Positions 18,210 to 43,598 of a stretch of DNA of 64,000 nt are shown piece after piece. Every line of letters begins with the position of its first letter. Within the stretch, counting starts at the first letter, position 1. Below the pieces are notes generated by a model. It worked only from the letters and a program-made list of their open reading frames with translations, was not told the DNA's origin and ran no database searches. Both the position numbers and the translations under genes were made by a program. The DNA comes from Spirochaetia bacterium (GTDB lineage: Bacteria > Spirochaetota > Spirochaetia > UBA9216): NCBI GenBank assembly GCA_963677925.2, contig CAXXYH010000003.1:512001-576000 (forward strand), written 5' to 3'.

Positions 18210-21200
18210 ATGGCCGCTTTTGATGATATGGATGTTTCTTTTGACGATTTAGACGACGACACCGAAATCCAAGCCGGACTTGAAGACGACAATGATGAAC
18301 TCGAAAAATACGGTGTATGGGTAAAAACAGGCCCGGTAGACGTCGAAGAATCCGAGGATGAAACCGACAGTTCTGATTTTGTACTTGAAGATCTCTCAGG
18401 CGATGATTTTGAAGAGGATTTTGATTCCGATTTTAATTTAGAAGTTGAAGATGATGAACCGGAGTATGAGGAAGAACACGACCTGCTGACTGATGAGGAA
18501 GAAAATCTTCTCAGCTCTTTGGAAGATGAGATGTCCGAAATTGAAGCTGGAATTGACGAGAATGAAGATTTCTCTTTTGACGATATAGATGATACCATTC
18601 CAACGGCTGATGACGAAGCCTCAGTTATTGACGAAGACACCTTTACATTAGAAGAACCCGAAATCGAGCTTCCTGAACTCGATATGGAAGAACCTGAAAT
18701 AGAACCGGATACCGATGCAGAATTTAATGATCTCGATGCTCTGGAAGCTGATTTAACAAATATTGAAGAAGACCTTTCCGGAAGTATGACTGAACTGAGT
18801 GAAACGGTCTCATCTTCTGACGAACTTGACTCTGTAAGCTCAAAATCAATCCTAATGAAGATAGAAGAGGAACTTCTATCCATTAAAAAGGAACTTACAG
18901 ACCTCAAATCAGAACTTTCAACTATCAAATCTGCACCCGGAGCTTCTGCGGCTGAACCGGATGAATCCGGCGGATTTTTCGAAGAAGATGAGGATGAAAC
19001 AATTGCTCTGACAGGCGATGAGCTTGATAATATACTTAACACAGCAGATATTACGGAAGAAAGCGGACAGGAAACTGAAGCCCCCGAAGAATCATATGAT
19101 TCACATACCGATGCAGTGTCCGGTGATGAACTGGATAATATTGAAGATATTGACCTTGACTCAATCAGCGGTCTGGATCTTGATGCTGAACCTGAAGAGC
19201 CCTTTATTTCAGAGGAAATAACAGATACAGATGTGGAATCACTTCTCAACGAAGAGATCCCGGCTTCAGATGACACTTTCAACCAGGATGACACCGAAGA
19301 ATTACTTTCAGGCTTTGACGGGACTGAAATTCCTGAAGAGTCACTTTCAGACACCATTGATTCAGACGATATGCCGAATGAGACTCAGCTTGATGAAAAA
19401 GAACTTGAAATTATCCATGATGAGGAGATTGACCTTTCTTCAGTTGAAGATCTCGAAATGGATGATTTTGACATCAATGAAGAAGAAAGTGACGAACCTT
19501 CTTCAGACAGCTTTGCTGATGACATTATCACAGATGTACCTGACGACATCGATCTTGATGATATAGTTCTTGAAGAACCTGAAACTGAAGAAATAGATCT
19601 TAATGACCTCAATCTGGAAGAAGAGGGACTTATTACCAGTGACGATGCTATTTTGAATAGCATTGAGACAACTGAAGAAACTTCCCCTTCTGAAGAAGAG
19701 CTTGATTTGTCTGAAATAGGCGTTCAGATTGATGATGAAGAGCTGAATCTTGATAACGATATCGAACTTGAAGAAGAGGAACTCGAAATAGACGATGATC
19801 TCTTCCTTGAAGAGATAGAAACCTCACAGGAAGATGAAGAACTGAATCTTGATGAAGTTGCTGCTGAACTTAATAACGGTGAGATTATACTGGATGATGA
19901 ACTTGGGGACACTGAATTAGAGCTCGAGGACACTGAATTAGAGCTCGAGGACACTGAATTAGAGCTCGAGGACACTGAATTAGAGCTCGAGGACACTGAA
20001 TTAGAGCTCGAGGACACTGAATTAGAGCTCGAGGACACTGAATTAGAGCTCGAGGACACTGAATTAGAGCTCGAGGACACTGAATTAGAGCTCGAGGACA
20101 CTGAATTAGAGCTCGAGGACACTGAATTAGAGCTCGAGGACACTGAATTAGAGCTCGAGGACACTGAATTAGAGCTCGAGGACACTGAATTAGAGCTCGA
20201 GGACACTGAATTAGAGCTCGAGGACACTGAATTAGAGCTCGAGGACACTGAATTAGAGCTCGAGGACACTGAATTAGAGCTCGAGGACACTGAATTAGAG
20301 CTCGAGGACACTGAATTAGAGCTCGAGGACACGGAGTTAGAGCTCGAGGACACTGAGTTAGAGCTTGAGGACAATGAATTAGAGCTTGAGGACACTGAGT
20401 TAGAGCTCGAGGACACTGAATTAGAGCTTGAGGACACTGAGTTAGAGCTCGAGGACACTGAATTAGAGCTTGAGGACACTGAGCCGGAAACCGTAGACTC
20501 TGAAATCGTTTTTGAAGATACAGATCTGGAACTTGACGAATCTGCCATTGAACTTGATGGCGAGACAATAAATCTCGAAGAAGATACTGACATCAATCTC
20601 GATGAACTTTCTTTTGAAGACAGTGAAATTTCAGAACCAGAGGAACCAACTGAAGAACCGACAGATGACATTAACCTTGACGAACTCTCTTTTGAAGATG
20701 AAGATGATAGTTTTGCAGATATAGAAGTTGGCACAACGACACTTGAGATTCCTGAAGAGGAAAACAGTCTTACTGATGAAATTGAGCTTGACGGTGAAAA
20801 ATTTGCTATTGAGACTGAATCGGCTGATTCAATGATTGATATCGAAGGCCTTGACGAGCTTGAACACCCAGATGAGACAGTAACCGATGATTTTTCAGGT
20901 GTTTCGATAGAAGAGGAACCTTTTGACGAAATTGCACTTGACGAGGAACTGGACACTGATGACATTGAAGTTTCACCGACAGAAGAATCGCTCATAGAGG
21001 ATCCTGCTCAGGTATCTCTTGTAACGGAAGAAAATATATCAGACATTTCTGAAATATCCGCTGTAGAGGATGATACTATTGCTTCTATACCTGAAGATCT
21101 CAGAGATGACATAAAATCAGTTCTCTCATATATGGATCATCTGCTTGAATCTCTTCCTGATGATAAAATTACTGAATTTGCCAAATCTGAGCATTTCGAG

Positions 21201-29266: not shown

Positions 29267-29866
29267 CTACTTTTTTGAAAGCATTTTCAAAGGATGCCCT
29301 GATAGTTTGAGATAGTCTCTCAGGGTTCTGGTTGATGAGCCGCCTACCTTCTGAAGGCAGACAAGAAAAACTTCCATACATGCTGCGGCATCATCTTCAG
29401 CGCGATGTGCATTTTCAAGGTTAATGCCGAGGTTCATTGCCAGACTTTCAAGAGTGTAACGCTGGTAACCACGCAGATGCCTTCTTGAAAGTGCAAGAGT
29501 ATCAACAAGCGGAAGTTCAGGAACAAGCCAGCCGCAGTCGGAAATACTCTGCCTTAAAAATGCAGCGTCAAAACCTATATTATGCGCAACGAGTACCGAA
29601 TCTTTTATAAAATCAATGAAGTCGGGAAGTATTACATCTATTGAAGGCTTGTCCGCTACCATATCATCAGAGATTCCGTTTACAGCCGAGGCAGCCTCTG
29701 GAATTCCGATTTCCGGATTTATCAGACCGGAAAAACGGTATTCTGCACCGCAGAGATCAAATTTTACCGCCCCTATCTCAATAATTTTATCCTTATCAGG
29801 ATAGAGGCCGGTAGTTTCAAAGTCAAAAGCGACGTAGGAAAGTTCGTTAATTTTTTTGTTCAGCAT
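29267..29866 (-). CDS. DEDDh 3'-5' exonuclease (DnaQ/PolC-like)
   Basis: [22 protein letters not shown]. Confidence 0.92.
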
Positions 29867-32345
29867 GCTCTGTCTGTTCTTTATTGTTTTTCTTTAAACG
29901 GAACTTTATCTTTTCATTTCTGCTTTCAACAAGAATATGATCTCCGCTCTTGAAATTACCCTTCAGAATTTCCATTGACAGCGGATCTTCTATCTCATTC
30001 TGAATAGTTCGTCTTAAAGGTCTTGCTCCGTATTTTACATCATAACCGATTTCTATAAGACGCTCTTTTGCCTTTTTGCTGATTTCAATGAAAATATTAT
30101 TCTCAAACAGTCTTATAGCTACTTCAGACATCATAACATCGAAAATCTCGCTGACATTAGCCTTATCAAGACTGTGGAATACTACAATATCATCAATTCG
30201 GTTCAAAAATTCAGGTCTGAAAACCCTTCTAAGCTCATTCATGGCAGAAGTTTTAATTTCGCCGTGATCCATCAAACCCTCAGAAACCTGAAAACCAAGA
30301 GATGAACCCTTTGATATTTCCCGGGCACCTGCATTACTTGTCATAATCAGAACTGTATTTCTAAATGACACTTTATGTCCAAGGTTATCAGCCAGTTCAC
30401 CTTCTTCGAGAACCTGCAGCAGCAGATTAAAGACATCAGGATGGGCTTTTTCAATTTCATCAAGAAGAATAACACTGTAAGGACGTCTCCTTATCTGTTC
30501 TGTAAGTACACCGCCCTCCTCATAGCCGACATATCCAGGAGGAGCTCCTACCAGCCTTGAAAGGTTGTGTTTTTCCATGTAATCAGACATATCTATTCGG
30601 ATAAGGGAATCCTGATTTCCAAAGAGAAACTCTGCAAGAGTTTTTGCAAGAAGAGTTTTACCAACACCCGTAGGTCCAAGAAAGATAAATGAACCCATCG
30701 GCCTCGTAGGTGAACTGAGACCGGTCCTCGATCTTCTTATCGATGATGCGACTACTTTAATGGCATCATCCTGGCCGATAACTGTCTTGTGAAGTTCTGC
30801 TTCAATTTTAAGAAGCCTTTCAGATTCTGTCTGTACAAGCCGGAACAAGGGAATACCGGTGATATTTGAAATCAGTTCCTGAATATCCTCATCAGTTACT
30901 ACATTTTTCTCATGTCTCAGCGTATCCTGCCAGCCCTTCTTTAGCTCTTCAACTTCAGATTTCATCTGACGGACCTTGTCACGTACAGCGGCAGCCTTTT
31001 CGTAGTTCTGGCTGTTTACCAGCGTGATCTTTTCCTGGGTAAGCTCCTCTATCTTCTTCTCCATATCTGCAAGTTCTTTTGGCCTGATGCTGTTGTTTAT
31101 ACGTTTGTATGAACCTGCTTCATCTATAAGATCGATTGCCTTGTCAGGCAGAAACCTGTCCGGTACGTACTTATCTGAAAGCTTGGCTGCAGCAATAACA
31201 GCCTCATCGGTATATTTAACATTATGATGTTCTTCGTAATTGGCTTTCACTCCATGAAGTATGGCAATGGTATCCTCAACATTCGGTTCTTCGACAAGGA
31301 TGGTCTGAAAGCGTCTTTCAAGTGCCGCATCTTTCTCTATATACTTCTTATATTCGTTCAGGGTGGTGGCACCAACGCACTGAAGCTCTCCGCGGGATAA
31401 TGCCGGCTTTAGCATATTTGATGCGTCTATGGCCCCTTCAGCACCGCCTGCTCCTATAATTGTGTGAAGTTCGTCAATAAACAGAATAACATTTCCAGCC
31501 GCTCGTATTTCTTTCATTACACGCTTAAGTCTCTCCTCGAATTCACCGCGGTATTTTGTACCTGCTATAAGTGAGGCCAGATCAAGGGTAAGAACACGCT
31601 TTCCAATAAGAACCTCCGGGGCTTCTCCATCTACAATTTTCTGGGCAAGTCCTTCAACTATGGCTGTTTTACCAACTCCCGGTTCACCGATAAGTACGGG
31701 GTTGTTTTTATTACGTCTGGCGAGAATCTGAATTACACGCTGGATTTCCTTCTCACGTCCGATTACAGGGTCAAGCTTTTCCTGTCTGGCGTATTCGGTC
31801 AGCTCCCTGGCAAACTCATCCAGAGTAGGTGTGGATTTTTTGCTGTTAATAGGCAGCTTTTTCCTTGCAGGTTCATCAGTCTGGGCAGGTTTCTGCTTAA
31901 CATTCCCGGGTCCTCTGATTTCAATCACTGTATTTCTTAAGTCATCCGGATTAACCGAATACTTGATGAAAAAGCGTGATGCTATACTACCCGCTTCATT
32001 CACTGCAGCAATAATCAGATGCTCGGTACCGATATAGTCATGACCGAGATTTCTAGCTTCCTCGGCTGAATCTTCAAGAATTTTCTTGCCGCGTCTTGAT
32101 GGAGGCACATCGCCAAGTATCAGTCCGCTGTGTTTTTTAGGTATATTGCGCTCTATTTCAAGCTGAAGCTCTATGGGATCGATATTAAGCTTTTTCATAG
32201 CTTTATAACCGATTCCCTCACCTTCCTTTATAATTGCAAGCAGGATATGTTCGGGAAGCAGCTGATCCGAGTGAAACCGCTTAGCTTCTTCCTGGGCAAA
32301 TATTGTCAGTATTCTCTGCGCTCTCTGTGTAAGGCCTTTGAACAT
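29847..32345 (-). CDS. clpC: ATP-dependent Clp protease ATP-binding subunit ClpC
   Basis: Clp-N repeats, [11 protein letters not shown] motif, [21 protein letters not shown]. Confidence 0.96.
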
Positions 32346-32363
32346 TCCGTCCTCCGTATTTTT

Positions 32364-33425
32364 CTACAGTTGTTTTTCCAGTATTACCTTTTTTATAAGT
32401 TCGGCTCTAGTAAAATCTATTAATGAATCATTGGATGCATCTTCATCCTTTCCAAGCATTCTCTGTATATGTGATTTCTGGCTGAGAAATATCAGCGTAC
32501 TGCACACATTCATTGGAAGCTCAAACATTCCAAGCGCGGCTCCAAGCCTCAGCATTGACAGGTTCTGCATTGCTTCGTTTGATCCGAGCAGTCTGCAGTT
32601 TGTAAGCAGACCGTATGCACGGTAGACAGTATCTTCCAGTTCAGTTCTTTTCTTTTCAAACAGTTCTTCACGGGCTTTACGTTCATAAAGGCTGATCTGC
32701 TGTGCAAGATTCTCCAGCTTTTCAATAAGTTCCTGCTCAGAATGACCTATTGTAAACTGATTTGAAATCTGGTACATGCTTCCGAGTGAATGATCTTCAT
32801 CACCCATAAAACCCTTTACAGTAAAACCAATCTGAACAACAGCTTTTAAAGCTTTTTCAATCAGATTTGTTTTAACAAGTGCCGGCAAATGCATCATCAC
32901 AGAAACCTTCATCCCTGTTCCGAGATTTCCGACCTCTGTATTGAGATACCCAAGATCAAAAGAAACCGCATAATCAAGATATTTTTCAAGTTCACGATCT
33001 ATTGCATCAGCTTTCTTATAACACTCTTCGACATCAAGACCGCCCCCGAATACCGACAATCTTATATGGTCTCTTTCGTTTATCATACAGGAGCTCAGGT
33101 TATCTTCGCTCAAAGCGAATTTTCTCGATTGATGAAGTGTAAAGTCCTGGGAAATATGATTTCTTTCAAGCAGAATCTTACGATCAAGCGGATTTATATT
33201 ACCAACTTCGTCAGTTCTGAAAATTGTAGCGCCAGAAATTTTTCCAAAAGAATCAGATATCTCAGCCCCTACCTTATCTTCTTCATCCTGCTCCATCTTT
33301 CCCGGATACATATGTCCGTTCAGATTTCTAGAAAGTCTTATCCGACTTGAGATTACAACATCTTCATGTGCACCGCTTTCAGAAAACCAGCCGGCCTTTT
33401 CCTTTATCAGCAGACTGCTACTCAT
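32364..33425 (-). CDS. mcsB: McsB-like ATP:guanido phosphotransferase (protein arginine kinase homologue)
   Basis: SSRIRLSRN, LLERNHIS, NLGTG, HLPAL, YQISNQ; lies between mcsA and clpC; start moved to ATG 33425. Confidence 0.85.
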   Translation of the reverse strand: MSSSLLIKEKAGWFSESGAHEDVVISSRIRLSRNLNGHMYPGKMEQDEEDKVGAEISDSFGKISGATIFRTDEVGNINPLDRKILLERNHISQDFTLHQSRKFALSEDNLSSCMINERDHIRLSVFGGGLDVEECYKKADAIDRELEKYLDYAVSFDLGYLNTEVGNLGTGMKVSVMMHLPALVKTNLIEKALKAVVQIGFTVKGFMGDEDHSLGSMYQISNQFTIGHSEQELIEKLENLAQQISLYERKAREELFEKKRTELEDTVYRAYGLLTNCRLLGSNEAMQNLSMLRLGAALGMFELPMNVCSTLIFLSQKSHIQRMLGKDEDASNDSLIDFTRAELIKKVILEKQL

Positions 33426-33930
33426 CACCAACCCCCGCTCTTTTTTCAAGAAGCTTTATACGATCTCTGAGGATAGCCGCCTGTTCATAATCTTCGCTGC
33501 TGATTGCGCTGGAAAGCTTTTCACGAAGGCTTTCCTTGTCGACGAGAAGGGTTTTAAGCGTAATTACCTTTTCAGGGAGCTTGCCGGTATGACGGAAATT
33601 CCCGGCTGTATTCTGAAGATAATTCTCTACATCTTTAATAAACACATTATAGCATTCGGGACAGCCTACTGTTCCGTTCTTTCTGAAATCCTTAATATTT
33701 GTACCGCAGTTTCTGCAAACTTCACTGTCCGTTTTTTCGGAAATCTTGTCAGTGATATCGATAAGTCCGGTCAGAAGCTGTGAAAGAGAGAGTTCTATTA
33801 TGTCCTCTTCACCTGAAATTCCTTTTTCACCGGCGCAGGATGTACATAAGTGAAGTTCTTTTACATCATTACCCATTATCTGTTTTACATGTATAACGGC
33901 GTCATTATCGCCGCAAATATCACATTTCAT
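33418..33930 (-). CDS. mcsA: McsA-like protein (CxxC motifs plus UVR domain)
   Basis: Four CxxC motifs, HTGKLP, EDYEQAAILRD. Confidence 0.92.
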   Translation of the reverse strand: MKCDICGDNDAVIHVKQIMGNDVKELHLCTSCAGEKGISGEEDIIELSLSQLLTGLIDITDKISEKTDSEVCRNCGTNIKDFRKNGTVGCPECYNVFIKDVENYLQNTAGNFRHTGKLPEKVITLKTLLVDKESLREKLSSAISSEDYEQAAILRDRIKLLEKRAGVGDE

Positions 33931-33992: not shown

Positions 33993-35228
33993 TCAATGTT
34001 TACTGATTACTTCCAACGGCTTCAGCTTCTCAGCCTTTCCGGCAGGTATTACTGCTGCAAGCGATGACAGGATCACTGCAGTAATAAAAACTGCAGCTAT
34101 CTGATAAGGCCTGATGATGACCGGAATGTGATCCAGGTAGAAACCGGCCGCTTCGGAAATCCTGTTAAAAAACAGAATAATACGGTTAATATTCAATGAT
34201 ATCAGAAGCCCGGCAGCAATACCTGCGAATGCTCCGGTAATGCCGGTCACCGCCCCTGTAATAATGAAAGCAAGTCTTATCTGTCCCCGGCCGGCACCAC
34301 AGCTTTTTAAAATGGCAATATCCTGCTGTCTGTCCATAATCATAATAATCATTGAAGAGGCAACATTAACCGATGCAACAACTACGATAATAATCATGAT
34401 AAATAAAAGCAGAGTTCTTGTGGTATTCAGCGACTCATACATACTTCTGTTAAGCTGATACCAGGAATATATCATTGAACCTTTACCAGCAGCACGCTGC
34501 AGTTCTGCACTTACAGTCCCGGAATCAGCATACGGATCTTCAACTTTAGTCTCAAGATGCATTTCGCCGCTGCTTCTGAAAAGCATAGCCGCCTTGTCAT
34601 AATTTATATATGCTGAAAGCGCATCCAGCTCGTAATAACCGGTTGAAAATATGCCTGTCACCGTAAAAACTTCGGGGCGCAGAACAGTGCGTCCGCTGGA
34701 CGTCTGCATGGCTGTCAGCAGTTTCACTTCCTCTCCGGGCGATGTATCAAGAAGCTCTGCTATTCCGCTGCTTATCATGATTGAATTATTTTCATGAATA
34801 TCAAAAGTTCCGCTCTCAATTTCAAGATATTCTTTAAGTCCTGAATCTCTTTCATATATATCATCAGGCAGACCTTTCACCTGTATTCCGCTTTTATATG
34901 ACACAGAGTATATAAGCGCACTGCCTGTATAAACCGGATATGCACAAAGCACACCGGAGATATTTTCAGTTTTTTCGAGAGCTTCAGCGATTTCGGTTTT
35001 ATCAGGTTCATCAAAGAATCTTGTCTGATAATGTCCGGTGCCTATTTCAATAAAGCGTCTTGTAATACCCTCAATCATTCCGGTAGAAACTTCAAGTACA
35101 ACAATAAGCGGAATCATTGATAGAGCAATTCCAACAGCAGCTCCCGCCATCGTGCGTCTTTTCCCTCTGTTGAAGGTCATAAAATTTCTAAGTCCGAGAA
35201 ATACTGAAAAAGCCGGAGAATTCATCAT
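33993..35228 (-). CDS. LolC/E family ABC transporter permease
   Basis: MacB/FtsX topology, DIAILKSCGA, LKPLEVI. Confidence 0.88.
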   Translation of the reverse strand: MMNSPAFSVFLGLRNFMTFNRGKRRTMAGAAVGIALSMIPLIVVLEVSTGMIEGITRRFIEIGTGHYQTRFFDEPDKTEIAEALEKTENISGVLCAYPVYTGSALIYSVSYKSGIQVKGLPDDIYERDSGLKEYLEIESGTFDIHENNSIMISSGIAELLDTSPGEEVKLLTAMQTSSGRTVLRPEVFTVTGIFSTGYYELDALSAYINYDKAAMLFRSSGEMHLETKVEDPYADSGTVSAELQRAAGKGSMIYSWYQLNRSMYESLNTTRTLLLFIMIIIVVVASVNVASSMIIMIMDRQQDIAILKSCGAGRGQIRLAFIITGAVTGITGAFAGIAAGLLISLNINRIILFFNRISEAAGFYLDHIPVIIRPYQIAAVFITAVILSSLAAVIPAGKAEKLKPLEVISKH

Positions 35229-35894
35229 AATTTAACCAGCTCACCGGATGTAAGTTTATATTCAATGCTTCCGCGGCCTGCAAGCTCCATGTCGTGAGTA
35301 ACCATGATGAGCGTTTTACCGTATTCGGCCACAAGTCTGAAAAGCAGTTCTTCAACAATTGAAGAAATTTTCCTCATCAAGGTTGCCGGTAGGTTCGTCT
35401 GCAAGAATAAGCTTCGGATCATTGACCAGAGCTCTGGCCATTGCGGCACGCTGCCTTTCCCCGCCTGAAAGCTGTGACGGAAAATGGTTGAGCCGTTCGC
35501 CAAGTTTTACATGCTCAAGCAGTTCCTCAGCTTTTTTCAAAGCTTTTTTCCTGCTTTCACCGGCCATGTAAAGAGGCATCATTACATTTTCCAGACATGT
35601 AAAATCTTTCAGAAGGTAATGAAACTGAAAAATGAACCCAATAGTTTTCTGGCGGTACCTTGCAATTTCATATTCAGTCATGGTGTTGATTTGATTTCCG
35701 TCAATTTCAACCAATCCTTCATCACCGTTATCCAGACCGCCTATGATATTAAGCAGAGTACTTTTACCGCAACCGCTGCCTCCGGTAATCATAACCTTAG
35801 TGCCCTTCTCTATTTTGAGATCAATATTTTTGAGTATCTGAAGATCCTCATTTCCTGTTTTATAGGCCTTTTTAAGACCTTCTATTTTTACCAG
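35225..35894 (-). pseudogene. lolD: LolD-like ABC ATPase interrupted by a +1 frameshift (probable sequence error or lesion)
   Basis: [26 protein letters not shown] in one frame; SSIVEELLF...MVTHD in the other; removing one base at ~35365-35371 restores GNLDEENSSIVEE; no ATG/GTG/TTG at the expected 5' end. Confidence 0.8.
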
Positions 35895-35926
35895 AATAAT
35901 CCTCCCGAAATATTATTAAACCAGGT

Positions 35927-40503: not shown

Positions 40504-40903
40504 TATAACCGGCAGCTTTCCTTACTGCAGAAAGGATTCTCTCTGGTTTAAACGGCTTTACTATAAAATCCCTGGCTCCGAGCTGAATCGACTTGATAAT
40601 AAATTTATCCTGTCCCATAGCAGAGCACATTATTACTCTGGCGTTGCCGTCAATTTTCATCAGCTTTTCAAGTGCTTCCAGCCCGTCCATTACGGGCATG
40701 GTTATATCAAGCAGAACGATATCGACCGGATTGCTGTAATACTTCTCAAGGCATTCAAGACCGTTTTCGGCTTCATCAGCAACCGGAATTGATGCCTCTT
40801 CGAGTATTTCACGTATTACGGTTCTCATAAACGACAGATCATCGACTATCATCACTCCGCGTGACAGTAACCCGTCCGTCAGTTTTTCTGCGCCCAGTTC
40901 CAT
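40484..40903 (-). CDS. CheY-like stand-alone response regulator
   Basis: IVDD, LLDITMPVMDG, MCSAMGQ, FIVKPF; SD GAGGA upstream of ATG 40903. Confidence 0.9.
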   Translation of the reverse strand: MELGAEKLTDGLLSRGVMIVDDLSFMRTVIREILEEASIPVADEAENGLECLEKYYSNPVDIVLLDITMPVMDGLEALEKLMKIDGNARVIMCSAMGQDKFIIKSIQLGARDFIVKPFKPERILSAVRKAAGYNEKSVN

Positions 40904-41983
40904 TTAAGAAATTCCTCTATAAACTTTTCGAGGTCTCCATCCATCACCGCCTGAATATTTCCGGTTTCATGCCTGGTTCTGTGATCTTTTACCATGTTGT
41001 AGGGATGAAAGACATATGATCTAATCTGATTTCCCCAGGAAATATCCTTTTTTTCCTGGGCATGCTTTTCATTCTCTTTTTCCTGCTCAGCCTGATAGTG
41101 CTCATAGAGCCTGGAACGCAGAACCTTCATTGCATTAGCCTTATTCTTATGCTGGCTGCGCTCATTCTGACACTGTACGACAATACCGGTAGCAATATGA
41201 GTAATTCTTACCGCAGAATCGGTCTTGTTAACATGCTGACCGCCTGCGCCGGAAGCCCTGTATGTATCAATCCGGATATCATCCGGCTTGATATCAACAT
41301 CAATATCATCTTCAATCACCGGTGATACATATACGGATGCAAATGAGGTATGGCGTCTGGCACTTGAATCGAATGGAGAAATTCTTACAAGCCTGTGTAT
41401 ACCTGATTCGCCCTTGAGGTATCCGTGAGCATAGTCGCCTGAAACCTGAACAGTAACAGACTTTATTCCGCCTTCAGCTTCAAGTAAATCAAGCAGACTG
41501 AACTTAAAATCATGTCTTTCAATCCATCTTGAATACATACGGTAAAGCATATTAACCCAGTCACAAGCTTCGGTACCGCCTGCACCGGAATGTATAGTGA
41601 GAAATGCATTATTTGCATCAAATTTATCGCCAAGGAGCTCAAGTATTTCAAGTTTTTCATATCGGGATGCTATGGCATCTACCGCTGATTTAATTTCAGG
41701 TTCAAGAGATTCATCCTCTTCCTCAACTGCCAGCGTATAAAGTTCTCTTGCGTCTTCCACATCGGTTTTAATCTGCTCCCAGGGTTCAAGTCTTCCCCTG
41801 ATCCGCTTCATATCGCCAAGTACTTTCTCCGCATTTTCACGATCATTCCAGAAATTCTCGTCAGCTGTCTGTTTTTCAAAATCGGCTATCTGTGACTTCA
41901 GCTTATCCGGGTCAAAGATGCCTCCATGTTTCTGATATCTTTTTTTCGAGCTGAACAAGCTCTGAGTCTATATCCTGCAGCAT
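40879..41983 (-). CDS. prfB: Peptide chain release factor 2 (programmed +1 frameshift)
   Basis: ATG 41983 with GGGAGG SD gives MLQDIDSELVQLEKKISETWRHL then CTT-TGA-C; downstream frame has SPF and GGQ motifs. Confidence 0.97.
41911..41925 (-). other. prfB +1 ribosomal frameshift cassette
   Basis: GGAGG-CAT-CTT-TGA-C, canonical internal SD plus slippery stop. Confidence 0.95.
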
Positions 41984-42002
41984 AAAGCCTCCCGTTTGTC
42001 TG

Positions 42003-42275
42003 CTATGTTTTAATAACTGATTTTTTCCACTTCTTTTCGTTGAGAAATGATATTACCATAGTTCCCTCAAAAGGATACTGATAAAACCGGATTTTATCAT
42101 AAAAATCGGTGGATTTATCTATATCCCATTTCAGCCGCTGAAGCGCCTTCTCACTGATTGAAGTACTTTCAAAGGTATTCTCGATTACACTCTTAAAACC
42201 GTATCGGCGGAGATAATCAAAAACCTGATCCCTGTGGCCGCCGTCGGCAATATCACATACTACTGATACGAACAT
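42003..42275 (-). CDS. Orphan Cas2/VapD-like small protein
   Basis: 90 aa; VSVVCDI (cf. Cas2 xVxYDI), LRRYGF, ENTFE (cf. QxSVFE), DKIRFY (cf. DSIRIY); no cas1 or array in window. Confidence 0.7.
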   Translation of the reverse strand: MFVSVVCDIADGGHRDQVFDYLRRYGFKSVIENTFESTSISEKALQRLKWDIDKSTDFYDKIRFYQYPFEGTMVISFLNEKKWKKSVIKT

Positions 42276-42281
42276 TGGTAC

Positions 42282-42310
42282 AGTTTAGAAAGATATTTTT
42301 TTTATGTCAA
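42282..42310 (-). promoter_or_regulatory. sigma70 promoter giving a predicted leaderless cas2-like-prfB transcript
   Basis: TTGACA (42310-42305) N17 TAAACT (42287-42282), 6 nt before ATG 42275. Confidence 0.75.
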
Positions 42311-42362
42311 ACCCTCTTTTTCCTATGGTGTATACCGAATCAGACCGAATATAATAATAGAT

Positions 42363-43598
42363 ATGAAAAAGAGTATTATTCTGCTCAGTTTATTTACAAT
42401 CGCATGTTCCGCTCTATTCAGTCAGGAAAATTCCATCTTTACTCCCTTTGTCTCAAGACTTAAGGCTGAGTCGGGAGATAACAGTATAACACTTACCTGG
42501 AACGATACAGATGATGTGGACGGTCTTTGTATAATCTACAGAAATACTGTTCAGATTACTTCTGAAAATCTGTCTTCTGCGGTTAAAATTGCACGTGTTG
42601 CAAAAGATATTGAATATTATGAAGATTTCCCTCCCTACAGCAGAACTGATTATTATTATGCAGTTTTCATGGAAGAGCCTGACGGAAATTTCAATGAAGT
42701 TTTTATTCCTTTCAGGAATTTGACAACCAAGGGTGCAAGAATAGCTGAAAAAATCAAGGATAACAGTCCTTCTCTCATCACAAGCTTAAAAGCCTGGGCT
42801 ACGGAAGAAGCCATACAGCTTTCATTCCGCTCAAGCAAACCAGCATCGGAACTTTTTGTATACAGAAACACTGAACCTATCGAATCCCGTGATGATCTGC
42901 TTGCAGCCAACCTTATAGCGACTATCCAGGGTTCTGCCAGCTCATATACTGATTATCCGGTTCCGGGGATCGGATACTATTACGGAATCATAGATTCAAA
43001 TCTTATTAAAACCGGTAATTTTATTTTCAAAGCGGGTGAAAACTTCACTTCTGTACCTGTAGAAATTACACTTAAAAGTACTGAACGTGTCGGTCTGCCT
43101 AAAGCCGCAATCTCAAGACCCAGACCACTTCCCTACCTTTCATTAAGCCGCGGATTTCAAACCGGCCGTGAACTTTCCACATCGGCAATTGACATAATTC
43201 CCTACAAGAAAAATATCTCAACATCTACAGAAGCCGCTGTTTCCATGCTTCTTAGAGGAATCAGCCTTCCGGAGGACAAGATAATCGAACCGGTTATCCT
43301 CAAACAGGATAGAAATCCTGCACAGGGAAGTGAACGGGCAATTCTTTCGGCAATTCTAAATTCAGAGTTTTCCGGCGGGGATTATGAAGCTGCAAAACTG
43401 AGACTTATTGATTTTCAGAAGATACGCCGAGACCGTGACATTGAAGCTTCAGCAAGTTTTTATCTTGGTCAGGTCTATTATTTCCTCGAGGACTATAATA
43501 ACTCGTTCAAGGCCTTTCTCAAGGCTCAGGACAAGTTTTATATCGAATCTAGGCCCTGGATTGACAGCCTCTTCATTAAAATGCGCAAAATTGATTAA
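42363..43598 (+). CDS. Exported hypothetical protein, FN3-like repeats plus C-terminal TPR
   Basis: Signal peptide; two ITLTW/IQLSF...IYR...YYY repeats; ASFYLGQVYYFLEDY TPR. Confidence 0.7.
   Translation: MKKSIILLSLFTIACSALFSQENSIFTPFVSRLKAESGDNSITLTWNDTDDVDGLCIIYRNTVQITSENLSSAVKIARVAKDIEYYEDFPPYSRTDYYYAVFMEEPDGNFNEVFIPFRNLTTKGARIAEKIKDNSPSLITSLKAWATEEAIQLSFRSSKPASELFVYRNTEPIESRDDLLAANLIATIQGSASSYTDYPVPGIGYYYGIIDSNLIKTGNFIFKAGENFTSVPVEITLKSTERVGLPKAAISRPRPLPYLSLSRGFQTGRELSTSAIDIIPYKKNISTSTEAAVSMLLRGISLPEDKIIEPVILKQDRNPAQGSERAILSAILNSEFSGGDYEAAKLRLIDFQKIRRDRDIEASASFYLGQVYYFLEDYNNSFKAFLKAQDKFYIESRPWIDSLFIKMRKID

Follow-up and report, generated by a model that had tools for sequence, protein, structure and literature searches.

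CRISPR systems have two universal proteins, and for one of them, Cas2, neither the origin nor the purpose of the nuclease activity is settled. The locus described here raises the question of what a Cas2-like gene does directly ahead of prfB, which encodes release factor 2 (RF2), in a spirochete genome where a search for CRISPR partners found none. The gene lies on the minus strand of a 64,000-nucleotide stretch of DNA (the window, whose positions are used throughout). An earlier note, made from these letters alone, had read it as a vertically inherited, non-CRISPR relative of Cas2, domesticated as the first gene of a prfB-cheY-PEGA-ftsY-lolCDE operon and engaged in RNA turnover or translation. 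The details of that reading that were checked against the nucleotides (a 90-aa open reading frame, a β1 Asp within CDI, a KKWKK tail, and a 19-nt gap to prfB) were all correct. The features on which the analysis turns are the following:

42003..42275, minus strand: Cas2-family gene without a CRISPR partner; ATG start, 90 aa plus the stop codon TAG (42005-42003)
41984..42002, minus strand: 19-nt spacer between the stop codon of the Cas2-like gene and the prfB ATG, holding GGGAGG, the prfB Shine-Dalgarno sequence
40879..41983, minus strand: prfB (release factor 2), with PCRF and RF-1 domains; ATG at 41983-41981
42282..42310, minus strand: near-consensus promoter of the sigma-70 type, TTGACA (42310-42305), 17 nt, TAAACT (42287-42282)
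42363..43598, plus strand: divergent neighbour of 411 aa, matching no Pfam family and conserved on the promoter side

Cas2 family membership and predicted fold

The translated protein carries D8 within the motif CDI, and its residues 81-85 read KKWKK. Its match to the Pfam profile PF09827 (CRISPR_Cas2) scored 31.0 bits (E 3e-7), above the curated threshold of 23.8, and aligned residues 1-66 to positions 1-65 of the 74 in the profile. Twelve PADLOC Cas2 models gave weak matches of 12.9-31.7 bits, and no NCBIfam Cas2 model matched. At E ≤ 0.01 the same Pfam profile detected 16 of 26 prfB-linked orthologues. When PDB sequences were searched with a profile, Cas2 chains ranked first (6k2e, 3exc, and 1zpw), and the Asp in the Y-D-[VI] motif of solved Cas2 chains aligned to position 8 of the window protein.

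An AlphaFold2 model built from an alignment of 29 sequences reached a mean pLDDT of 95.8 and a pTM of 0.85. Its predicted elements are β1 (residues 2-8), α1 (12-24), β2 (28-31), β3 (34-37), α2 (42-55), and β4 (61-69), and this β1-α1-β2-β3-α2-β4 core is followed at the C-terminus by a hairpin of β5 (72-79) and β6 (82-88). In a Foldseek comparison of the model with the PDB, 35 of the 37 rows listed were Cas2 chains or Cas2 domains, with TM-scores of 0.44-0.71; at E ≤ 0.001 there was no match, the best E being 1.7e-3. The top superpositions (2i0x, 3exc, 1zpw, and 4es2) gave an rmsd of 1.6-2.2 Å over about 70 residues with 21-26% identity; these four entries, whose PDB titles say hypothetical proteins, we take to be Cas2. 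Thus, the earlier note would have fallen had the protein lacked a Cas2/VapD fold, and the predicted fold in fact matches solved Cas2 best.

A two-copy fold prediction scored 0.51, as opposed to 0.00 for the best of three controls, and so passed a mark that 20 of 30 proteins solved as same-chain pairs attain, against 1 of 23 single-chain structures. Separate prediction runs shared at least 54% of their contacts, with a partner pLDDT of at least 84. The predicted interface takes in residues 4, 6, 8, 30-34, 61-68, and 70-78, and sets β5 of one subunit against β4 of the other. Because solved structures of Cas2 dimers exist, this pass may mirror likeness to known structures and is no proof of dimerisation. 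As modelled, the window protein most likely forms a Cas2-type homodimer with the acidic residues of β1 at its interface.

Conservation across 108 distinct family sequences follows the same pattern of a shared core with additions of its own. E36, K49, D57, Q66, P68, and W83 are invariant, with F2, G26, D60, R63, and Y65 almost as strictly kept; at positions 29-31 the usual residues are K/Q, V/I, and Q/H, and the median pI is 8.7. The general Cas2 signature is kept (FE-S, L-K in α2, and D-x-[IVL]-R-x-Y), while Q66, P68, W83, and the hairpin ending in KKWKR are specific to this family. Position 8 is Asp in 93 sequences, Glu in 14, and Gly in 1, a variation that appears looser than would be expected of an indispensable catalytic Asp. 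Some members among the orthologues P0047 and P0056 and the loci L068-L076 bear short C-terminal extensions, rich in Lys, Arg, and Pro and probably disordered, that run past the KKWKR hairpin.

The Cas2 hallmarks that the earlier note had picked out by eye were, accordingly, borne out by the profile match, the predicted fold, and the predicted dimer. By sequence and modelled fold the window gene is a member of the Cas2 superfamily, and the part of the usual description that fails for it is the words "CRISPR-associated".

Separation from CRISPR-Cas, distribution, and descent

The earlier note had reported no cas1, other cas gene, or array within 64 kb, and within the profiles and the repeat scan used this absence holds genome-wide (an assembly of 5,044,142 bases, 4 contigs, and 99.63% completeness). 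The window gene is its sole PF09827 match, and a whole-genome profile search gave 0 matches each for Cas1 (PF01867), RAMP (PF03787), and Cas5 (PF09704). A scan of the genome for at least three exact 18-mers spaced 40-100 nt apart, a design that arrays of degenerate repeats would escape, returned no CRISPR-like array; its two candidates were simple tandem repeats of 27-nt and 21-nt period. The repeat with the 21-nt period is a long one at about 19917-20480 of the window, with 22 exact copies of one 18-mer, and the repeat with the 27-nt period lies on contig C1 at about 41.8-42.3 kb.

To these data can be added those for 40 relatives from the same class. Cas1 was found in 13 of the 41 genomes, which divide as follows:

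Cas2-like gene present, Cas1 present: 8 genomes
Cas2-like gene present, Cas1 absent: 18 genomes
Cas2-like gene absent, Cas1 present: 5 genomes
Cas2-like gene absent, Cas1 absent: 10 genomes

This cross-table indicates that presence of the Cas2-like gene is unrelated to CRISPR. Six of the 8 carriers with Cas1 have a high-scoring Cas2 beside it, and in the other two (G004 and G008) the prfB-linked copy is the only one found. The two kinds of gene also differ in score and location: canonical Cas2 adjacent to Cas1 scored 52-99 bits against PF09827, and the prfB-linked copies, located elsewhere, scored 24-42 bits; in one genome (G007) the two lie 0.8 Mb apart. The independence from CRISPR claimed by the earlier note is thus upheld both in the window's own genome and in the 18 of 26 carrier genomes that lack Cas1.

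In the same 41 genomes the gene is single-copy wherever it occurs, namely in 26, comprising 10 of 10 from the window's own family and 15 of 30 from other families of the class. It is absent from 15 of the 40 class relatives, many of them with small genomes, so it is dispensable in those; there, prfB is directly preceded by a 411-aa-like, a GH57-like, or another gene. When the 2.7-3.2 kb 5′ of prfB in these 15 genomes were searched for remnants with a family HMM and tblastn, only noise was returned (best E 0.35 and 0.043). One of the small genomes without a prfB-linked gene (G011) has two VapD-like open reading frames of 108 and 130 aa (L054 and L056) that match PF09827 below its cut-off.

A wider phylum sample of 401 genomes contained 61 with a match, 56 of them full-length at E ≤ 1e-21; these 56 are the window genome, 41 others of its class, and 14 of other classes. 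Carriage is uneven among families, at 37 of 50 genomes in one family with genomes of 2-3 Mb and at 0 of 75, 0 of 17, and 0 of 8 in three others. The statement in the earlier note that similar small genes precede prfB in treponemes fits these 37 carriers, as well as loci L070-L072, L075, and L076 of the same family and L164, which is titled Treponemataceae.

Beyond the phylum, a family profile run against 1.84 billion representative proteins gave 64 matches at E ≤ 0.001, of which 35 reach E ≤ 1e-10, and a scan of 185,579 species, one genome each, gave 279 matching stretches. Of the best 80 of these 279, 78 are titled as spirochetes; the other two are an "uncultured bacterium" and a metagenome bin with the label Borreliella. 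The last (L155) is titled Borreliella garinii, and since 8 of 8 sampled genomes from the family with genomes of about 1.0-1.8 Mb lack the gene, its label looks doubtful. No family match was found in 72,556 plasmid records or 50,697 phage records. Nor were fused or longer forms found at 159-2000 aa; the few longer representatives were rejected as true long forms, as they look like wrong start calls or chimeric contigs. The family is therefore narrow, and in the searches made, with the species scan judged on its best 80 of 279 matches, the branch is found almost only in the Spirochaetota.

A maximum-likelihood tree of 68 rows and 94 columns was used to place this branch. Its rows were 46 family members (including the fragment P0099), 13 CRISPR-linked Cas2 proteins from the same relatives, 7 weak matches, and 2 VapD-like sequences; the tree is unrooted and samples canonical Cas2 thinly. 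A branch of length 1.05, supported at 100/99, separates the 46 family rows from all the others, and the 11 from other classes group together as a clade (support 100/100). The two VapD-like open reading frames of the relative G011 lie on the canonical Cas2 side. An AU test of a single clade for 45 rows, from which P0099 was left out (it had been counted among the weak matches), gave an uninformative p-AU of 0.316. Hence, in this unrooted tree the family stands apart from CRISPR-linked Cas2 on a long branch; the sporadic gene nested in CRISPR clades, which the earlier note had named as the outcome that would overturn it, was not what was found.

Distances and substitution rates agree with this placement. 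Over the same 34 loci, the Cas2-like protein and RF2 have correlated pairwise distances (Pearson 0.67, Spearman 0.53), a correlation matched in 0 of 2000 Mantel permutations. For the six closest species, the Cas2-like gene has a dN of 0.065-0.137 and prfB one of 0.096-0.166. The dN/dS of the Cas2-like gene is 0.035-0.067 in 6 of 21 pairs, dS being saturated and the ratio undefined in the other 15; where defined (about 0.04-0.07) it is similar to that of prfB. In all 46 loci read, the frame of about 90 aa is intact. From the separate clade, the correlation with RF2, and the low dN/dS, vertical inheritance of the Cas2-like gene under purifying selection, as proposed in the earlier note, is well supported.

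Operon context and promoter

The position of the gene relative to prfB is a constant of the class. All 26 relatives' loci have prfB directly downstream on the same strand, 1-61 nt away, as do 9 of 9 other class loci and 80 of 80 loci from the species scan, the last being a set that overlaps the other two through shared species representatives. In every class-level locus examined, the Cas2-like gene is promoter-proximal and ahead of prfB, in line with the earlier description of it as the first gene. On the other side, a divergently encoded homologue of the 411-aa protein precedes the gene in all 26 relatives' loci and in 55 of the 80 from the species scan. The synteny with prfB that the earlier note had envisaged across the phylum thus holds in the window's class and fails in other classes, where adjacency to prfB was seen in 0 of 11 loci. 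Neighbours at those 11 loci are unrelated housekeeping genes (for PGK, OTCase, PurT-like, GGDEF, peptidase M3, TPR, glycosyltransferase, and other proteins) with no common theme, and none belongs to a cas, defence, or antitoxin family. Homology of the 411-aa neighbour to divergent TPR proteins at three of these loci was considered and rejected, the BLASTP comparison not being significant (best E 0.036).

Downstream of prfB, the operon continues with genes for a CheY-like receiver, a PEGA protein, FtsY, a 351-aa protein, and LolC/D/E-like proteins, which is the content given in the earlier note with the 351-aa protein added between FtsY and the Lol-like genes. The gene for the LolD-like ABC ATPase (35225-35912, minus strand) is read in two overlapping frames, 35352..35912 and 35225..35506, and has no ATG, GTG, or TTG near the expected N-terminus, pointing to a frameshift or a sequencing error. 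Just 3′ of the lol-like genes, a cluster of mcsA-like (UVR motif), mcsB-like (ATP:guanido phosphotransferase), and clpC-like genes occupies 29847-33930 on the minus strand.

The prfB gene of the window has the classic form of the +1 frameshift site, CTTTGA at 41917-41912 (minus strand) preceded at 3 nt by GGAGG. All 26 relatives' loci share this pair of motifs in prfB, and near the prfB start CTTTGA is also seen in 14 of the 15 class genomes without the Cas2-like gene.

Upstream of the Cas2-like gene, the candidate promoter fits 10 of 12 consensus positions and is the top one among three promoter-like sites in 40800-42700, where shuffled sequences average 4.0. Its -10 box ends 6 nt 5′ of the ATG, and a Shine-Dalgarno sequence is absent. 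Terminator-like sites were sought in 40800-42700, including the gap between the Cas2-like frame and prfB, and none was found. The layout was then scored in other genomes as TTGACA (one mismatch allowed), TAnnnT after a spacer of 16-18 nt, and a start codon 4-10 nt further on. Among class loci it is present in 30 of 34, with a Shine-Dalgarno-like core in 1 of 34; all other ATG triplets in the same loci, taken as a control, have it at 14 of 4700. The overlapping set of 80 loci gave the layout in 74 and a Shine-Dalgarno-like core in 1, as against 18 of 7110 control ATGs; here the start codon is ATG in 79 of 80, and the commonest distance from the -10 box to it is 6 nt. The conserved form can be written TTGACA-17/18-TAnnnT, ending 5-10 nt ahead of the ATG. 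In loci of other classes the situation is reversed, with the promoter layout in 0 of 11 and a Shine-Dalgarno sequence in 11 of 11.

The spacing usual for bacterial start sites would put the 5′ end of the transcript at or next to the AUG here. From 30 of 34 loci as opposed to 14 of 4700 controls, we soundly infer by comparison that the mRNA of the Cas2-like gene would be leaderless in the class. The near-consensus promoter and leaderless message that the earlier note had predicted from one sequence thus find their counterpart in a layout conserved across the class. The divergent 411-aa gene has TATAAT 7 nt ahead of its ATG (42350-42365, plus strand) and also lacks a Shine-Dalgarno sequence, so that the 87-nt intergenic region may fire two opposite leaderless transcripts.

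Candidate roles and relation to known Cas2 proteins

That the window gene represents a distinct branch of the Cas2 superfamily outside CRISPR, identity and evolutionary history taken jointly, can be held with high confidence. What the branch does is a matter of more graded judgement. The best explanation overall, which we consider somewhat more probable than its competitors combined, is that of a CRISPR-free Cas2 branch whose product acts on nucleic acid as a homodimer and is encoded at the head of the prfB operon. In such a dimer, D8 of each subunit would be paired at the interface, and the basic C-terminal hairpin (KKWKR, with its invariant Trp) would be exposed; the dimer would bind nucleic acid, most likely RNA, and would probably cut it, without the help of Cas1. 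As the first gene of the prfB operon in the window's class, read from a conserved strong promoter into an mRNA that would start at or next to the AUG, it would be co-transcribed with release factor 2, and its action might be tied to translation or to mRNA quality control. The mechanistic part taken by itself, a homodimer of the Cas2 type that would bind or cleave nucleic acid, with a possible link to translation, is put forward tentatively. Gene order in one class suggests the link to a housekeeping role in translation or RNA turnover, and this link is weakened because prfB linkage is absent in other classes and the gene is missing in 15 of 40 class relatives. A still more specific version, in which an exapted Cas2 older than the split of the spirochete classes is translated from a leaderless message and works as a homodimeric RNA nuclease or RNA binder with the termination machinery, seems to us rather improbable. 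Its candidate targets would be stalled or stop-codon-paused ribosome-mRNA complexes, or else the control of the prfB frameshift, and, if true, it would provide the first Cas2 with a cellular, non-defence role.

A serious rival, for which we would claim no more than a modest chance, is that the fold has become non-catalytic, so that the protein serves as a scaffold or regulator, for instance by binding RNA, DNA, RF2, or the ribosome without cleavage or by autoregulating the operon. Position 8 varies (Asp in 93, Glu in 14, Gly in 1) while the strictest invariants lie elsewhere, at K49, D57, Q66, P68, and W83, and the family-specific β5-β6 hairpin bears the basic KKWKR. In addition, Cas2 is described as having a scaffold role within the adaptation complex, and nuclease activity as missing from some Cas2 proteins (PMC8987985). 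This rival has to accommodate an acidic position 8 in 107 of 108 sequences and the retention of canonical Cas2 motifs (FE-S and D-x-[IVL]-R-x-Y).

The other readings return the gene to mobile elements or to CRISPR and are poorly supported. Since Cas2 and VapD are homologous, and since antitoxin-less Cas2 homologues are known on mobile elements (PMC3506569), a VapD-like toxin of an addiction or toxin-antitoxin module with an unrecognised antitoxin might be imagined. Yet the gene has no conserved small partner frame, being flanked by prfB and, at its promoter end, by the divergent 411-aa gene; it is single-copy at a fixed chromosomal site, with distances that track those of RF2, and has no match in the plasmid or phage collections. 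The two VapD-like frames of the relative G011 fall on the canonical side of the tree, and a strong, constitutive-looking promoter would be odd for an unopposed toxin, all of which makes this reading very unlikely. Service in CRISPR adaptation in trans, as the Cas2 partner of a distant Cas1, could draw on the 8 of 26 carrier genomes that have Cas1, but 18 of 26 do not, 6 of those 8 keep their own high-scoring Cas2 beside Cas1 (G004 and G008 having none but the prfB-linked copy), and the C-terminus is unlike that of canonical Cas2, whose C-terminal strand is said to matter for Cas1 binding (PMC10491678); we give it hardly any credence. Descent as a decaying remnant of a lost CRISPR-Cas locus would account for a genome without Cas1, RAMP, Cas5, or a CRISPR-like array and for the low Pfam Cas2 score; it is contradicted by a frame of about 90 aa intact in 46 of 46 loci, a dN/dS of about 0.04-0.07, the same position across many families of the class, and a clade of its own with support 100/99, and its probability is close to nil.

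What sets the prfB-linked family apart is best seen against CRISPR-associated Cas2 (6k2e, 3exc, 1zpw, 2i0x, and 4es2). The two share the β1-α1-β2-β3-α2-β4 core with an acidic residue ending β1, the FE-S and D-x-[IVL]-R-x-Y motifs, and, as predicted for the window protein, a dimer with the acidic residue at its interface. In contrast to CRISPR Cas2, the window family has no cas1, array, or cas genes nearby, and most carriers have none genome-wide; it holds a fixed prfB-side position in the class and a separate long branch in the tree; and it adds the invariant Q66, P68, and W83, the β5-β6 hairpin ending in KKWKR, and a promoter of the leaderless type. The label "CRISPR-associated protein Cas2", which databases place on genes of this family, is thus misleading, because carrier genomes without a CRISPR system get flagged by it.

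To our knowledge, the non-CRISPR relatives of Cas2 known so far are toxins, mobile-element genes, and one Burkholderia family. A Cas2 long maintained by purifying selection in the absence of Cas1, as the leading gene of a translation-factor operon, therefore offers a clean system for finding out what the Cas2 fold does alone and, if the family were rooted outside CRISPR Cas2 (the present tree is unrooted), a living model of the pre-CRISPR ancestor. A literature search over open-access full text and bioRxiv brought up no prfB linkage, no leaderless promoter, and no vertically inherited solo Cas2 of a spirochete. VapD toxins and the Cas2 homologues of mobile elements belong to the same superfamily and likewise lack Cas1, and they are described on mobile elements with an antitoxin, resolvase, or relaxase (PMC3506569). 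The window family is unlike them in being chromosomal, single-copy, and syntenic, with no plasmid or phage match.

A nearer parallel is BPSL1038 of Burkholderia pseudomallei, which was proposed as a Cas2/VapD nuclease sub-family and whose physiological role is given as unknown (PMC10491678). Both are Cas2-fold homodimers that pair Asp residues at the interface, those of the window family being predicted, and both stand outside CRISPR and are conserved within a lineage (PMC10491678). They differ in that BPSL1038 is not recognisable as Cas2 by sequence (PMC10491678), which the window family is. They differ also in motif and C-terminus: BPSL1038 is described there with D11(X20)SST and a C-terminal helix (PMC10491678), whereas the window family has no SST 20 residues past D8 and ends in a predicted β hairpin. 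BPSL1038 is the closest known precedent for a lineage-conserved Cas2 fold outside CRISPR (PMC10491678).
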